Virus genome (UHGV): UHGV-0041739
Length of the DNA: 35,963 nucleotides
Direction: 5' to 3' (one strand)
Source: a virus
The notes below the pieces were generated by a model, which ran no database searches, was not told where the DNA came from, and saw only the letters and a program-made list of their open reading frames with translations. The first letter of the stretch is position 1. Every line of letters starts with the position of its first letter. A program made the position numbers and the translations under genes. Positions 2,313-28,336 of this stretch are shown piece after piece.

Positions 2313-3249
2313 TCAGGCTTCTGGCGCATTACAGAAAAACCAGAACGGCGCAGATATTCCGGGAAAAGATACCTTCACCAAAAATATTGGGGCCTGTCGC
2401 GCATATAGCGCATGGCTGAATATTGGTGGCGATAGTCAGACCTGGACAACCGCACAATTCATTTCGTGGCTGGAGAGTCAGGGGGCATTTAACCATCCTT
2501 ACTGGATGTGCAAAGGCTCATGGGCTTATGCAAACAATAAGGTCATTACAGATACAGGTTGCGGAAATATTTGTCTTGCAGGTGCTGTGGTGGAAGTTAT
2601 TGGCACTCGCGGCGCAATGACCATACGCGTTACTACGCCGAGTACATCCAGCGGTGGCGGAATTACTAACGCTCAATTCACCTATATTAATCATGGTAAT
2701 GCTTATGCTCCTGGCTGGCGACGAGACTACAACACGAAAAACCAGCAGCCTGCATTTGCTTTAGGGCAAACAGGAAGCAGGGTTGCAAATGATAAAGCTG
2801 TTGGCTGGAACTGGAATAGCGGCATTTATGATGCAGATATCAGTGGCGCATCGACATTAATCCTCCACTTTAATATGAATGCGGGGAGTTGCCCTGCTGT
2901 ACAGTTCCGCGTGAATTACAGGAACGGCGGTATTTTTTATCGTTCAGCGCGTGATGGTTATGGATTTGAGGCTGACTGGTCAGAGTTTTACACCACGACC
3001 CGCAAACCCTCTGCGGGAGATGTTGGTGCATACACGCAGGCAGAATGTAACTCAAGGTTTATTACAGGTATTCGCCTTGGCGGTCTGTCATCTGTTCAGA
3101 CATGGAATGGTCCCGGCTGGTCTGACAGGTCAGGTTATGTCGTTACGGGTTCAGTTAACGGAAACCGTGATGAATTAATTGATACAACTCAGGCAAGGCC
3201 AATTCAGTATTGCATTAATGGAAGGTGGTATAACGCGGGGAGTATTTAA
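2280..3249 (+). CDS. S': S'v alternative tail-fibre variable cassette (silent; no own start, expressed only after G inversion fuses it to Sc)
   Basis: ORF-track entry 2110-3249 extends upstream into gin antisense; homology to S (IIQNLGLQETVNQASGALQKNQNGADIP) begins at the gix site. Gly/Asn/Thr-rich fibre-like composition. Confidence 0.7.
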
Positions 3250-17285: not shown

Positions 17286-18203
17286 TTACAGGTAGTCAGC
17301 AACAACCAGTTGCAGCTTACCCTTCATCTCGTTAGAGACGGTGGTATTGCCATCCGCGAACAGCTCACGGTTAAGCAGTTGCTCTGCGGATTTTTCCAGT
17401 CCGACCGGTACAACGATATGCGTCGGCTTCAGGCCCAGCTTCTTACCGCCATCACCTTCAAAAGAACGCATCAGTTGCCAGCCCTTCCAGAGGTTATCCA
17501 GCGTCAGATCGCCTTTTACCGCGACAGCCATCTGCCAGAAGCCGTAACCGGCAGCACGGCGGGCGCTGGCACCAAACAGGAACTCGTTATCCATAAAAAC
17601 GTGGTCGTCATCGATACGGGTACGTGCGACCAGTTCCGGTTTGCGGCGCTCCTGGAAAATCAGCGGTTTGACTGCGCGGGAGCAGTCCAGCAGATAGAAT
17701 GGCAGACCGCTGAAGCTGTCCTGCTCAACGATGTTGGAGGTATTAACTGCGCTGCCCGTGCCGTCCACATTCGGATATACCGGATGCTCCTTGTCGAAGA
17801 AGTTCTGACCGTCATAGCAGGGCTGGGTAAAGCCATCTTTCAGAAGTTTAAAAATCAGCTCATCCGGCTGAACTGCCGCAGAACGGCCCATCTCCTGAAA
17901 AATCGGCGCATAAATACCCAGATTGTCATCCTCGAAGTCATCACGGGAAATACCCACGGTGCCTTCAAACGTTTTATTAGCGATGGAGTAGCCATGCGCT
18001 TCCATTTGCTGAATGGTTCGCTTACCCACCCATTCTTTCAGGGTCGGGAATTTACCCAGCCAGCCATAGGTATTGCTGCGGGTGGAGGAGTTCACCACCA
18101 TTGCAATTTTGCTGTACTGCGACGGGGCGTCTTCAAGACCGCCCTGAAAATCCTTACGCCAGGAGGTCATCAGAGCTTTAATGGATGCCGGGGTGACAAT
18201 CAT
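17286..18203 (-). CDS. T: Major capsid protein (Mu T-like)
   Basis: 305 aa downstream of the protease/scaffold gene. Confidence 0.85.
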   Translation of the reverse strand: MIVTPASIKALMTSWRKDFQGGLEDAPSQYSKIAMVVNSSTRSNTYGWLGKFPTLKEWVGKRTIQQMEAHGYSIANKTFEGTVGISRDDFEDDNLGIYAPIFQEMGRSAAVQPDELIFKLLKDGFTQPCYDGQNFFDKEHPVYPNVDGTGSAVNTSNIVEQDSFSGLPFYLLDCSRAVKPLIFQERRKPELVARTRIDDDHVFMDNEFLFGASARRAAGYGFWQMAVAVKGDLTLDNLWKGWQLMRSFEGDGGKKLGLKPTHIVVPVGLEKSAEQLLNRELFADGNTTVSNEMKGKLQLVVADYL

Positions 18204-19300
18204 TTTTCTTGTTCCTGTTTCATTTTCAGATACTCAGCCTCAGTAATGCCGAGCGCCTTCACTGCTGCTTTTTCATCAGCAGACAGCACCGCCACCGCCG
18301 GTTTTTCCTGCGACGGGTTTTGTACCGTTGTGGTCTGCATGGCAGATAACGCAGCGATGGGCTGTTTTTTCTCAAGCTGTGCCGACAGTGCCGCCACGCC
18401 AATCTGACCGCCAAGCTGTTCCAGATAGGCACGTTCGCTTTTGAAAATGCGGCCTTCCTGTTCCGCCTTGTCCAGAACGGCGCTCAGGCTGGCGGTGGCA
18501 CTTTGCGCGGTGGCCTGAGCCAGTTCATCAAGCACGGCGTTGTAGCTTTCCACCGGGACGTATTTCGTCAGGTCAACGGCGGCTTTCTGTGCCTTTTCCA
18601 GTTCGGCGGATAACGACGCCACTTTTCCGGCATCTGTTTCGAGTGCATCAAGCGCACTCAGGGCCGCGCTGGCCTGTTCATCAGTGATGTCTGCATTTTC
18701 GGGGACAGTTACCCCAAGACGCGCAAGCAGCTTGCGCAGCGTTTCATTCATGGGTTTGTTCTCCTGTTGAAGGATGTCGGGAAGGCCTGCCGCCAGTGCG
18801 GTCAGCTTTTTCATGCCGGTGGCACCGGGATCATTGGTCAGCGCAGCAAGGCGGATTTGCAGTACCGCACCAGTGGCGGTGTCATACGGAAAAACCGCAG
18901 AGAGATAACCAAATTCACCGTCATCGATGCGCTGCTGGGCTGCCGCTGTCCAGCGTGGGTGGATAAATAACCCTTCACCTTCACGCCACTGCATTTCATC
19001 GGCGTTAAACCAGCCAGCCGCGACCAGTTGTTCCGGGGGTAATCCTTTGTCCTTACGCAGCTGGTTATGCTCGTAATCAATCAGCACGTCCTGGTTAAGT
19101 GCGCGGATACCTTCAATCAGGCGTCCGGCAATTTCTCCGTCGATGAACCAGCCCTGACCGGTTGTTACATCAAACGGGCGACCGTCACGGGCACTGAAAT
19201 AACCGGCAGGCAATAGCTGGCACCAGCCGTCATCGTCAATGGACAGCGCACCCAGCGCAGCAATACCAATCGCGTGTTTTTTCATGTCCGGCCTGCTCAT
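18200..19300 (-). CDS. I: Head maturation protease / scaffold (Mu I-like; scaffold Z is nested in-frame in Mu)
   Basis: 366 aa with Ala/Glu-rich coiled-coil C-terminal half; likely true start at MKKH (~19285). Confidence 0.8.
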   Translation of the reverse strand: MSRPDMKKHAIGIAALGALSIDDDGWCQLLPAGYFSARDGRPFDVTTGQGWFIDGEIAGRLIEGIRALNQDVLIDYEHNQLRKDKGLPPEQLVAAGWFNADEMQWREGEGLFIHPRWTAAAQQRIDDGEFGYLSAVFPYDTATGAVLQIRLAALTNDPGATGMKKLTALAAGLPDILQQENKPMNETLRKLLARLGVTVPENADITDEQASAALSALDALETDAGKVASLSAELEKAQKAAVDLTKYVPVESYNAVLDELAQATAQSATASLSAVLDKAEQEGRIFKSERAYLEQLGGQIGVAALSAQLEKKQPIAALSAMQTTTVQNPSQEKPAVAVLSADEKAAVKALGITEAEYLKMKQEQEK

Positions 19301-19486
19301 CGTGATTTGTGAGTAGCCAGTGTGCGGGGAACGGGAGAAAAGGCGGGGTTATCCAGTTTTAGTAATTCTGCAGGAGAAAGATAAAGGGGAAGGGAAATGC
19401 ATGACGCTACCCCCTTCAAAACCCCTTCAAAAACGCCACAGAACCTTCAAAAATTCTTTATCGCGTGATTTTATCTCTGTATCTGG
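19301..19486 (-). promoter_or_regulatory. G-I intergenic region: expected site of late promoter PI and of the central strong gyrase site (SGS)
   Basis: 186 bp non-coding gap near the prophage centre; three direct CCTTCAAAA(A) repeats at ~19412-19460. In Mu the SGS and PI map between G and I. Confidence 0.55.
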
Positions 19487-19957
19487 TTACTGCGTCAGAG
19501 CGGCGCTTACGCGTTTTCTGATGGCATCATAAATTTCCTGCTCACCGCTCTTATCCAGCCCCATATAAGGACGTGCAGGAACACCTGCCGGACCGGGGGG
19601 CATATCAGGCTTACCGCCCCACTGATGAATAGCAGCGTAAACTTTTGGTGAGCCAATCAGGGCATAATCCGGGCCGTAAGCGGAAGTGATGCTGCGGGCC
19701 AGATCGCCATGCAGGGTAAGAATGCTACCCGGAATAAAACCATGCTCCTGACGCCATGCCAGCCACGGGTCACTCCATGACTCCCAGCTCTGGCCCGTGT
19801 CCGGGTCTGCCTGCCGTTCAAAAGCCTGTTCAGAAGACGACAGCAATGCCGCAGCCATCACACGTGGCACATATCCGTCATGCGTTACCGTTGCCAGATC
19901 ATCAAGAGCAAGCCGGATACGTCGCACATCCACGGCAACGTTCATATCAAGACTCAC
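19487..19957 (-). CDS. G: Virion morphogenesis protein (Mu G-like)
   Basis: 156 aa between F and the I intergenic region. Confidence 0.75.
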   Translation of the reverse strand: MSLDMNVAVDVRRIRLALDDLATVTHDGYVPRVMAAALLSSSEQAFERQADPDTGQSWESWSDPWLAWRQEHGFIPGSILTLHGDLARSITSAYGPDYALIGSPKVYAAIHQWGGKPDMPPGPAGVPARPYMGLDKSGEQEIYDAIRKRVSAALTQ

Positions 19958-21309
19958 TTATTCACCTCCACATGCCCTTCCAGTACGTCAATCATCCCGT
20001 CAGCAATCGCGGCTTCAAGCGACTGTGCAGATACGCGGCTGATACTGACCAGCACATCAGCCCGGTCATTCTGCCTGCCGACTGTCTGTGATGTTCTGAC
20101 CACAATTTGGGCCGTGCCGTCACGGGTTGCCACAACGTACAGCAGCTGGTGATTTTTTCTGTCCCACAATACCGCCTGTGGTTCTGCCATCAGAGACGGC
20201 AGACGCTGTAAATCCTCTGCTTTCAGGGCAGCATCAGCAGCGGTAGCCAGACTTTCTCCATTCATCACCAGTAAACGGGCTGGCATATTCCCGGTGCGCT
20301 GATGTACGGCTTCAGCTACCGATTCCGTCATAAAACCCAGTGCCCGGATCTCACGCCCGGCGTGACGTGATTTCGCCAGACGATTAAGCCACAGGGAAAA
20401 AGCAAGCTGGCGCTCCCGGCTGTTATTCAGCGTCTGTACAACCTGCTCACGCAGCTGCGCGTCACGAACTTCCACCAGTTTTCGAATCAGCGCCTGATCA
20501 GTACCGAATGCCGCCGAACCGGGGTTATATGACCAGCCAACGTCCGGCGTCATTTTTACCCGACCGTTGTCAAACGTGGTTGACGATGTGCGGAAAATCT
20601 CTCCTGTGCTTTCATCCGTGCCGGCCTCCACTTCGCGGGTATCCATGAATGAAGCACCATAGCTGACCTGTAATCCCAGTTCTTTCATTCGGGCCGCAGA
20701 TATCGCACGAACGCGGCAGCGACAGCTCCAGCCATTGGGCGGGTAATGTGTCTGCCAGAAAATATCGTCATACCGGAAAATCATATTATGCAGCCGGGCA
20801 TGTTCCGGGCGCGTTCTGCTGTCCATAACGGCGACATACTGCCAGTACGGATACAGGTCTGCGGTATTCATCATCTGTGCATAACGTCCCGCCCCGTACG
20901 CTGTACGGGTATTGACGTTATAAATGGTTGCCAGACGACGCGGACTGCCCAGTTCGATTTCCTTCGCGTTTCCCTCTGCATCCACGATGATTTGTTTTCC
21001 CCACCATCCGAGCTTTTGCAACCGGGGAGCCAGTGTGCGGGTAAATTCCTCACGGGTGATACCCTCACTGACAGCCCGCTCCACTTCCTCACGGATTGTG
21101 GTCAGGACATCCATCCGGGCAGCTTTGGCAACGGTAAAGGCACGGGCGTGCGCGTCTGCCAGTTGTTCGTACCAGTTCCAGGTGATGTTGTAGCCTTTGG
21201 CGCGGAAATACGCGACAGCCTCCTTTGGCGGGAGGCGTGCGGCATACGCCAGATCAATGGTCTGCTGCGGCATCCAGACGCCCCCATATATCGGCAACAA
21301 AAATGGCAC
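19954..21309 (-). CDS. F: Head morphogenesis protein (Mu F-like minor head protein)
   Basis: 451 aa downstream of portal; likely true start ~21273 (MPQQ). Confidence 0.8.
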   Translation of the reverse strand: MPFLLPIYGGVWMPQQTIDLAYAARLPPKEAVAYFRAKGYNITWNWYEQLADAHARAFTVAKAARMDVLTTIREEVERAVSEGITREEFTRTLAPRLQKLGWWGKQIIVDAEGNAKEIELGSPRRLATIYNVNTRTAYGAGRYAQMMNTADLYPYWQYVAVMDSRTRPEHARLHNMIFRYDDIFWQTHYPPNGWSCRCRVRAISAARMKELGLQVSYGASFMDTREVEAGTDESTGEIFRTSSTTFDNGRVKMTPDVGWSYNPGSAAFGTDQALIRKLVEVRDAQLREQVVQTLNNSRERQLAFSLWLNRLAKSRHAGREIRALGFMTESVAEAVHQRTGNMPARLLVMNGESLATAADAALKAEDLQRLPSLMAEPQAVLWDRKNHQLLYVVATRDGTAQIVVRTSQTVGRQNDRADVLVSISRVSAQSLEAAIADGMIDVLEGHVEVNK

Positions 21310-26601: not shown

Positions 26602-27012
26602 TCAGAATAAATCGGGCTGATGTCGCCGTGAATGAAGTTTTCTCTGCCGGGCAATAATCTTGTAAATCTGCGGTTGTGACAGACGATGTTCACGCCGCAG
26701 CTCCTCTATGTTCCGACCGTTAAACTGGCAGTAAATCAGATCATCCCGCAACGCTGCCAGAAGTGCATCACCCCGGGGGATGTAATACTGCCGCCCCCCC
26801 AGGAACCATGATAAGGACATCACCTGTTTACGGGCTATGCTCCGTGCATCATCCACGCCCTGACGTTTCAGTTCTGTTTCCAGAACGTCAACCAGCTCAA
26901 CCAGCGCGCGGGGCCAGCGGGCCTCCTGCTCAGGAGCCGGTATATTGTCGATATGATCCATTAACTGGCTTACAGCCGGATCATGTTCAAATAAATCCTG
27001 CTGATTTGTCAT
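26602..27012 (-). CDS. C: Late-gene transcriptional activator C (Mor/C family)
   Basis: 136 aa, paralog of Mor with C-terminal HTH (QPQIYKIIARQRK); last gene of the middle operon, directly upstream of lys. Confidence 0.85.
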   Translation of the reverse strand: MTNQQDLFEHDPAVSQLMDHIDNIPAPEQEARWPRALVELVDVLETELKRQGVDDARSIARKQVMSLSWFLGGRQYYIPRGDALLAALRDDLIYCQFNGRNIEELRREHRLSQPQIYKIIARQRKLHSRRHQPDLF

Positions 27013-27148: not shown

Positions 27149-27525
27149 GCCTCCGCGCCAGACGGTACTGAACGTCGCAGACAGATATGGAGGCGAAAGC
27201 AAAACCATATGCTACAGAAGCCAGATAAAGCATAAATCGTGAACTGATGCGCTTCTTCTAAAAGCCCGGTTGCAATAGCCGAAAGACTTAACCCGACGAG
27301 GCCACCAAGAAAATCAATGGCATTAATAGAAGCATAACGTCGGATTTTTCCTGTCCGGGACAGATCATCAAAAATAGTGCCGGTAAAGCACAGCGCCACA
27401 CTGAAAACGGCAGCATTCCAGAACAGCAGCGCCCGCAAACCATAAAACAAGCTGATAATCAGAATCAGCGCCAGCAACATGACCGGCAGACAATTTGGTA
27501 ACAAATAACAGAAACGCTTAAACAT
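27145..27525 (-). CDS. Multi-pass membrane protein, holin-like (Mu gp19-like)
   Basis: 126 aa with three hydrophobic helices; in the middle operon between the GH108 gene and C. Confidence 0.55.
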   Translation of the reverse strand: MFKRFCYLLPNCLPVMLLALILIISLFYGLRALLFWNAAVFSVALCFTGTIFDDLSRTGKIRRYASINAIDFLGGLVGLSLSAIATGLLEEAHQFTIYALSGFCSIWFCFRLHICLRRSVPSGAEA

Positions 27526-27736
27526 GATGCTTTTCCCTGTAACGCTGGCAGTGGTGAATAATTTCTGGCATATCGACTGACTGCCAGCCTTTCATGTAAT
27601 AGCTCCCGTGGGTGCCATCGTGCCCTGTGTAATCCATTGGCTTTGGTGGTGGACCTCCGGCCTCCCGATGCAACACCTCCTGTCGTAAACGTTCGCGTCT
27701 GCCAAACCGAAAGGACGCATCCCACCCTTTACCCAT
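27518..27736 (-). CDS. Small hypothetical protein (72 aa or shorter)
   Basis: ORF bridging the GH108 and holin-like genes; His/Arg-rich; start uncertain. Confidence 0.3.
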   Translation of the reverse strand: MGKGWDASFRFGRRERLRQEVLHREAGGPPPKPMDYTGHDGTHGSYYMKGWQSVDMPEIIHHCQRYREKHHV

Positions 27737-28289
27737 GCAGAACCTCCCGGCAGGCGCTGGCGAGCAGATCCAGACGGTTAAACCAGCCGTTCAGATATTT
27801 CCCCTGCGAGGCACTGGATTTGATAATCCCTGCGTAATAGCGGGAACGACGCAGGAAACACTGCAACAGCAGCCAGTCAGTATCGGCACGCAGTACGGCT
27901 GCGCGAGTGTTTTTGCCGACGATGCCATCATCATCAACACCTGCTGCCGCCTGGAGGATTTGAATTGCGCGTTTAACACCGTGCTGAACGGCAGCATCAA
28001 AGACGAATAAGGAAACACCATCAGGCCATTCGTTACACTTTGCCGCCAGCCAGTAATCACGCCAGTAGATTTGCGCCGCCTGCTCGTGGGTTAAATCTTT
28101 AATACGGGTATCAGGCTTCCCGTCACCGTTAACATCGGTTTTGCCATCAATAACGCCGTCGCGACGGTCAGAAATGCCGTATTTGGTTTCGCCGCCACGG
28201 TCAGTGGGATCATTAACGTAACCACCTTCAACATCAGGCCGTATAACAAAATTCAGCGAATGAAGGAATGCAGGGGAAAACTCAGGCAT
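27729..28289 (-). CDS. Peptidoglycan hydrolase-like protein, GH108 N-terminal domain plus PG_binding_3 C-terminal domain
   Basis: Motif VEGGYVNDPTDRGGETKYGIS matches the GH108 signature (EGGY.NDP.D.GG.T.YGI); C-terminal ...FVFDAAVQHGVKRAIQILQAAAGVDDDGIVGKNTRAAV resembles PG_binding_3. Likely start ATG at 28289 with AGGAGGG SD. Confidence 0.7.
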   Translation of the reverse strand: MPEFSPAFLHSLNFVIRPDVEGGYVNDPTDRGGETKYGISDRRDGVIDGKTDVNGDGKPDTRIKDLTHEQAAQIYWRDYWLAAKCNEWPDGVSLFVFDAAVQHGVKRAIQILQAAAGVDDDGIVGKNTRAAVLRADTDWLLLQCFLRRSRYYAGIIKSSASQGKYLNGWFNRLDLLASACREVLHG

Positions 28290-28336
28290 GTTGCCCTCCT
28301 GTAATGAACGTTTTATCGTCACAACAGAATATTGAG

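Follow-up and report, generated by a model that had tools for sequence, protein, structure and literature searches.

The DNA analysed here (the window) is a 35,963-nt stretch of the virus genome UHGV-0041739, and it corresponds to a Mu-like prophage of Escherichia coli SE11: 400 nt around the gap between its genes G and I match the SE11 chromosome at 100% identity, compared with ~79% for phages Mu, D108 and SfMu. The reverse complement of the window equals positions 3638-39600 of the SE11 locus L007, which places the Mu map orientation on the minus strand. In a local blastn comparison with Mu, the prophage runs from L007 2351 to 39002 (36,652 bp); its left ~1.3 kb, which contains attL, the repressor gene and the beginning of ner, falls outside the window. 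The window begins ~600 nt beyond attR (located at ~599) and ends inside the early region. In SE11 the prophage interrupts a gene for an Rpn-family recombination-promoting nuclease, the halves of which flank it (L007 1992-2363 and 39003-39551).

The minus-strand genes around the locus follow the order of Mu (H, F, G, gap, I, T), and the late region through G and I is 93.7% identical between the two phages. Gene I has two candidate starts. The ATG at 19285 is the RefSeq start in SE11 (L007 20316) and the Mu-equivalent one, and it is preceded by GAGCAGG; the ATG at 19300, chosen by the ORF lister, is out of frame at its Mu counterpart. Judged by this comparison, the true start of I is likely ATG 19285 rather than the upstream codon. 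Elsewhere in the window lies a homologue of the late activator C, annotated in SE11 as a member of the Mor family, in which the C-terminal helix-turn-helix, the DNA-binding end, is nearly identical to that of Mu C. Between the mor and C homologues (window ~27370-28290; L007 11312-12578) a glycoside hydrolase gene of the GH108 family is found together with small ORFs, in a region that partly differs from Mu gp18-20; this gene is additional to the glycoside hydrolase in the lys position after C, and it is also present in the KFu019-type prophage described below.

With I starting at 19285, the G-I gap comprises 201 nt (19286-19486). The first-pass annotation had described it as the only sizeable non-coding gap in the late region, spanning 19301-19486; it is indeed the largest unannotated gap of the late region in the SE11 record, with a slightly greater extent than was drawn, and the next largest measures 144 nt and has a Mu counterpart covered by a frameshift product. 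A repeat search recovered the three direct repeats that had been noted in it. Their 11-nt unit is present at 19411-19421 (100% identity), 19422-19432 (100%) and 19442-19452 (82%), the copies being spaced 11 and 20 nt apart. Copies 2 and 3 form a perfect adjacent 11-bp tandem. For the 9-mer CCTTCAAAA, the window has five occurrences where 0.41 would be expected, a count reached in 0 of 100 shuffles and thus far above chance, and three of the five copies are packed within 43 nt of the gap (19410-19453). Together the repeats make up a 46-nt module (Table 1).

Table 1. Coordinates of genes and predicted elements at the G-I locus of the SE11 prophage, in window positions unless given relative to the cut.
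Feature	Position	Strand	Basis or remark
Gene I (head protease/scaffold)	18200..19285	-	94% amino acid identity to Mu I
PI late promoter homologue, -53..+14	19299..19365	-	70% identical to annotated Mu PI
-10 CACACT	19319-19324	-	aligns to Mu -10 CAAACT; weak hexamer
C-box core ATAACCCCG	19344-19352	-	shared with other late promoter homologues
C-binding element ACTAAAACTGGATAAC	19348-19363	-	alignment to Mu PI
Possible weak RNA hairpin	19373..19418	-	inverted repeat; at the position of Mu's predicted lys-G terminator
Predicted right arm, +26..+85	19380..19439	-	limits of PMC6463007 transferred by alignment
46-nt repeat module TTTTTGAAGGTTCTGTGGCGTTTTTGAAGGGGTTTTGAAGGGGGTA	19408..19453	-	repeat search; alignment to Mu right-arm T-tracts; match in a second lineage
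Repeat 3	19410-19421	-	+44..+55 from cleavage centre
Repeat 2	19422-19433	-	+32..+43 from cleavage centre
Repeat 1	19442-19453	-	+12..+23 from cleavage centre
Predicted gate (G) segment, -25..+25	19440..19489	-	alignment to Mu gyrase cut site
Gene G (virion morphogenesis), 156 aa	19487..19957	-	85% amino acid identity to Mu G; 3' end 90% DNA identity
Gene C (late activator, Mor family), trans-acting factor for PI	26602..27012	-	75% amino acid identity to Mu C
A/T tract 1	Mu +10..+20; SE11 +11..+20		counted from the base after the top-strand cut
A/T tract 2	Mu +32..+40; SE11 +33..+40		counted from the base after the top-strand cut
A/T tract 3	Mu +45..+51; SE11 +45..+51		counted from the base after the top-strand cut

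In the curated Mu record, the corresponding gap has gyrase cutting marked at 17879/17880, which is 20 nt past the stop codon of G; a terminator is predicted at 17908-17953, the late promoter PI spans 17977-18043, and I starts at 18056. Mu's strong gyrase site (SGS) consists of a dispensable left arm (-65..-26), a gate segment (-25..+25) and a right arm (+26..+85) (PMC10052514, PMC13284261, PMC6463007). The first 40 nt of the right arm are essential, with phased bending signals that wrap the GyrA pinwheel (PMC10052514, PMC6463007), and function requires a central location in the prophage (PMC6463007, PMC3820752). For the gene G region we used the left-arm limits of PMC6463007. A site of the Mu type binds gyrase strongly and specifically, is cleaved at a single place in the presence of quinolones, supports processive supercoiling and is needed for replicative transposition to be efficient once the prophage is induced.

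Alignment to the mapped Mu SGS core, which the first-pass annotation had put forward as a check with lack of similarity among the grounds for rejection, showed that the core is similar. The Mu-SE11 alignment is gap-free through this part; both phages have the core ATAAAATC^A of the cut site at the same distance of 20 nt from the end of G, and 9 nt around the cut are identical. Transferred from Mu, the 4-bp staggered cut ATAAAATC^ACGC^GAT is predicted at 19467|19466 on the top strand and 19463|19462 on the bottom strand. To the left of this position the prophage extends for 17.8 kb and to the right for 18.9 kb, which puts the cut at 48.5% of its length in the full SE11 record (48.7% in Mu), in agreement with the earlier remark that the gap is near the prophage centre. 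Identity to Mu is ~90% in the adjoining G coding sequence, 60% in the G segment, 56% in the proximal right arm and 50% in the distal right arm. Core, register and centrality thus all match the annotated Mu site, which supports the proposal of a Mu-type gyrase site in this gap.

The repeats fit into the same frame. All three occupy the positions of the three T-tracts of the Mu right arm, in the same register, and the T4-5/G4-5 units run in 11-bp tandem within +32..+55; the proximal 40 nt of the predicted right arm (19400-19439) hold repeats 2 and 3. Since the repeats coincide with the Mu T-tracts and copies 2 and 3 fill the proximal arm, the triplicated motif is, as far as alignment defines it, the SE11 prophage's version of the Mu SGS right arm and an ordinary, expected feature of a Mu-like phage. 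The versions differ in detail. SE11 units read TTTTGAAGG(G) and those of Mu TTTTAAACG/TTTAACGG, the arm as a whole is 56% identical, the perfect 11-bp tandem of copies 2 and 3 is unlike the Mu arm, and the terminator hairpin inside the Mu arm is not conserved in SE11. Among the Mu-to-SE11 substitutions, 12 of 26 keep the W/S class, near the one third expected; being close to chance, this comparison is uninformative.

Homology is no guarantee of full function at the SE11 site, as only the Sakai site supported Mu replication among the other gyrase sites, including those of Mu-like prophages, whose exchange for the Mu SGS is recounted in PMC10052514. The SGS-like sites of Sakai (E. coli O157:H7) and other Mu-like prophages are likewise described as central gyrase sites (Oram & Pato 2004, as relayed in PMC10052514 and PMC3820752), and the reviews on the SGS, through which the primary papers are known to us, report no test of an SE11-type arm.

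A sequence discrepancy within the cut itself deserves mention. The 'Mu SGS' fragment given in the Topo-Seq supplement comes from pMP1000, which is said to carry a nuB SGS allele, and a single base within its 4-bp stagger departs from the Mu genome record (AGCC -> ACCC; Mu 17881). The same C is found in a natural prophage of E. coli RM8082 (L104), and SE11 also has C there (ACGC, window 19465).

We additionally examined the predicted shape of the arm. In a wedge model, for which control sequences gave 39 degrees (phased A-tracts) and 10 degrees (unphased), predicted intrinsic curvature peaks at 26 degrees at 19426. This is in the top 0.2% of window positions, and the curvature prediction suggested in the first-pass annotation came out in favour of a bent arm; the Mu arm reaches only the top 5% of its genome in the same model. 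W/S periodicity, scored at 10-11.5 bp in 45-nt windows with the Mu arm as control, ranks the Mu arm second in its genome, showing that the control works, and the arm of the KFu019-type prophage second in its own, whereas the SE11 arm falls only within the top 1.1% of the window. The genome-wide E. coli gyrase motif obtained by Topo-Seq spans 130 bp, with arms at +20..+66 that have a 10.75-bp GC/AT periodicity and a consensus arm that reads ...GGGGCCTTTAAGGGGGCCTTTT... (Sutormin et al. 2019, PMC6379681), resembling the GGGGTTTTGAAGGGGG of the SE11 arm. On the matrix of that study, the Mu SGS has a reported score of 14. A W/S template built from the 133-nt Topo-Seq consensus and scanned across Mu, the window and KFu019 gave a rank-3 window peak at 19469; it was dropped as evidence because it failed the Mu control, leaving the Mu SGS outside the top peaks in Mu.

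The second element in the gap is a putative late promoter. In Mu, the C site covers 16 bp centred at -43.5, and no -35 hexamer is present (PMC2582627). The four annotated Mu late promoters align on the box cATAAcCCc, with -10 elements TAGACT, CAAACT, TATCCT and TAAGAT, and the window holds counterparts of all four (Plys, PI, PP and Pmom). At PI, ACTAAAACTGGATAACCCCG (19344-19363) aligns to the Mu box, and by analogy with Mu transcription is predicted to start near 19312. The exact core ATAACCCCG occurs four times in the window, always on the late strand, three of these at the lys, I and P homologues; the Pmom homologue carries ATAACCACA. A promoter scan of the gap found no sigma-70 -35/-10 pair at PI, as expected for an activator-dependent promoter. 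The features that the Mu C-dependent late promoters have in common, namely an ATAACC(C/A)C box near -43.5, a -10-like hexamer and no -35 element in a phage that encodes C, are all shared by the SE11 prophage. Its PI differs from Mu PI in the -10 element (CACACT rather than CAAACT), in a 3-nt insertion upstream of the C site and in an overall identity of 70%. With the C box and -10 conserved relative to Mu PI and a C homologue encoded, the earlier placement of a PI late promoter in this gap is well founded as a prediction.

The fourth exact copy of ATAACCCCG (20520-20528, minus strand) lies inside gene F, and the same box is present in Mu F (Mu 16818). It is followed by GTTCGGCGGC, which resembles the GACGGCGGC of the PP promoter, and could mark an internal C-dependent promoter ahead of G or be merely conserved coding sequence.

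The first-pass annotation had linked the triplicated motif to both elements, the gyrase site and PI. The former attribution stands, with the repeats spanning +12..+55 from the gate into the right arm; the latter does not, as the motif has no overlap with PI (19299-19365). We rejected the repeats as part of the promoter because both Mu PI (-53..+14) and its SE11 counterpart begin ~45 nt past the last repeat, and the SE11 homologue lies 45-150 nt beyond the repeats in the downstream direction.

Overall, we put the probability that the G-I gap carries an SGS homologue with an adjoining C-dependent PI at roughly 80%. Homology, position, repeat register, centrality, recurrence of the C box and the presence of C were computed directly; that gyrase would bind and cut here, that replication would be affected and that initiation would depend on C is carried over from experiments on Mu. 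Following the Mu model, host DNA gyrase would bind the gap with its cleavage centre ~22 nt after the G stop. The TTTT(T)GAAGG(G/T) repeats would then serve as alternating T-tract/G-tract bending signals, about one or two helical turns apart, a spacing that would let the right arm wrap the GyrA C-terminal pinwheel and present the T segment. Processive supercoiling driven from this central site could bring both prophage ends together, permitting transpososome assembly and fast replicative transposition after induction. Downstream of the repeats, PI, when activated by C, would drive I, T and the following head genes.

The arm sequence has an unusual distribution. The SE11-type gap and arm occur in only 3 of 5,426 genomes. 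A further 41 complete E. coli genomes carry other Mu-type prophages, and the two that were sampled have an arm identical to that of Mu; on the basis of these two, the Mu-type arm appears to be the form in all 41. A search with the gap alone matched the 46-nt module itself, at 94-98% identity, to DNA that is unannotated in one plasmid and in ~46 other complete E. coli genomes. These matches fall in the central gap of a different Mu-like lineage (KFu019/PSS-15 type), in which the gene order is portal, a short F, gap and I, with G further downstream. Its I protease is only 30-31% identical to that of SE11, and the module is the only stretch of at least 90% identity in ~25 kb of late genes, whereas the transposition genes of the two types are 94.6% identical. 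Within the 33.6-kb KFu019-type prophage, the module has the same orientation, lies upstream of I and is situated at ~47.8% of the length. We found no isolated phage with a KFu019-type gap in the phage collection searched.

The sequence at the would-be cleavage core of the KFu019-type gap is unrelated to that of SE11 and varies within the lineage. A palindromic-looking candidate cut at the Mu-equivalent distance, TGAAT^GTGC^ATTCT, was discarded, being not conserved within the lineage. The KFu019-type prophages (L012) are mosaics: identity to Mu or SE11 is ~89-95% for their ends and for A, B and mom, and the whole head/tail region is replaced by distant homologues; they are 3 kb shorter and have one annotated Mor-family gene. 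From the arm sequences, the SE11 gap looks like a Mu-type backbone with a KFu019-type right arm.

The module is conserved in 20 viral contigs as well as in about 50 genomes of E. coli. Two IMG/VR contigs, L091 and L100, provide a third context, in which 22 nt separate its end from the start of I and a Mor-family gene precedes it. The order there (L100 1926-3300, and likewise L091) runs from a DUF3486 gene through a protein of 285 aa that has a C-terminal Mor domain and an ORF of 143 aa to the module and then a short Mu-like I protease of 279 aa; a portal or F gene is absent directly upstream. A metagenome contig, L086 (IMG/VR), contains an exact 23-nt tandem of repeats 2 and 3 (3105-3127), with the first repeat and the spacer absent. 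This tandem lies ~450 nt upstream of a 403-aa gene without a significant Pfam match, with an ORF on the opposite strand between them, a context that looks unrelated. Among 68 loci found through the protease, phased T3-5(A/G)AA(C/G)G repeats precede I in several prophages with related repeats, including those of Erwinia tracheiphila, Xenorhabdus, Vibrio, Rodentibacter and an enterobacterium, and the unit TTTAAACG / TTTGAAGG is conserved across distant hosts.

One way to read this pattern is that the 46-nt module is a right-arm cassette of transposable phages, portable and under sequence constraint, which passes almost unchanged between lineages whose head genes are unrelated because it does more than bend. 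We hold this extension of the SGS reading tentatively and think it rather unlikely. If it were true, the module might be, for example, an optimized sequence for wrapping the GyrA pinwheel, possibly stronger than the Mu arm; alternatively, it might be read by gyrase together with a sequence-specific factor tied to the I operon.

In a rival reading, the repeats could be a binding-site array for a sequence-specific phage or host nucleoid/regulatory protein, instead of or beside gyrase wrapping, with that protein acting perhaps on I-operon expression or on prophage domain structure. The module's 94-98% identity between lineages with unalignable flanks, its 'spacer' bases included, exceeds what indirect readout of bendability seems to need, although recent recombination accounts equally well for such identity. 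Its constant place just upstream of I, in the same orientation, and its situation 22 nt before the I start behind a Mor-family gene in L091 and L100 could link it to I expression; PI as defined in Mu, however, excludes the repeats. Retention of the unit TTTAAACG / TTTGAAGG across distant hosts would also suit a protein target, but no candidate binding protein was identified, and in Mu both footprinting and genetic dissection treat the homologous stretch as the right arm of the gyrase site (PMC10052514, PMC6463007). Both lineages with the module moreover share their transposition genes (~95%), which fits a role in transposition. On balance we regard a binding array as unlikely.

The repeats might otherwise act mainly as RNA, the G-rich repeats and a C-rich stretch forming an intrinsic terminator of the lys-to-G transcript. 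At the homologous place, Mu RNA would form a strong hairpin (z = -4.1) with a U-run behind it, annotated as a terminator by TransTermHP, and in SE11 the G-rich repeat 3 can pair with the C-rich CCCTTCCCCTTTA (19373-19394), ahead of a U/C-rich tail. The SE11 hairpin, however, with a fold of -20.9 kcal/mol, does not stand out significantly from shuffled sequence (z = -1.2), and its U-tract is poor and interrupted. The terminator scanner made no call for an intrinsic terminator in the SE11 gap, the gap has no match to an Rfam family, and as a whole RNA it folds no better than shuffled sequence (z = +0.68). In the KFu019 lineage, the identical module is followed by a separate canonical terminator in which it takes no part. 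As the module there has its own downstream terminator, its conserved role is not termination, and we judge a mainly RNA-level function in SE11 to be improbable, somewhat more so than a protein-binding array. The perfect and adjacent copies 2 and 3 might suggest that slippage during replication duplicated 11 bp in tandem and that the repeats have no function. This is contradicted by the comparative data, in which each copy has a same-register counterpart in Mu and other Mu-like prophages and the module recurs across the genomes and contigs counted above, and is very improbable.

With the repeats read as the right arm of a Mu-type gyrase site, the SE11 locus alone would confirm a textbook Mu feature in a prophage relative, and the added value is comparative. 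Beyond the expected, the alignments show an arm sequence common to the SE11 prophage and a distantly related lineage. The natural right-arm variants comprise Mu-type TTTAAACG units, SE11/KFu019-type TTTGAAGG units and the versions in Erwinia, Vibrio and Rodentibacter; they keep their register to the cut, or their phased spacing where the cut is unplaceable, while the bases differ. Such variants form a ready set with which to explore why some gyrase sites are 'strong' and processive. A 46-nt arm that is nearly identical across lineages with 30%-identical head genes also makes a good candidate for a small element that could be transferred to recruit gyrase, a point that bears on the practice of adding SGS sequences to plasmids to raise supercoiling.

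Finally, small ORFs are annotated in the G-I gap of some phage records, namely '31.5' in D108 (L003 417-545) and a hypothetical protein in Mu_3F6 (L005 389-529). RefSeq annotates none in SE11; the window itself has ORFs in the gap at 19297-19419 (-) and 19320-19532 (+). The D108 and Mu_3F6 ORFs lie on opposite strands and overlap the gyrase site, and small ORFs inside the gap are probably annotation noise.
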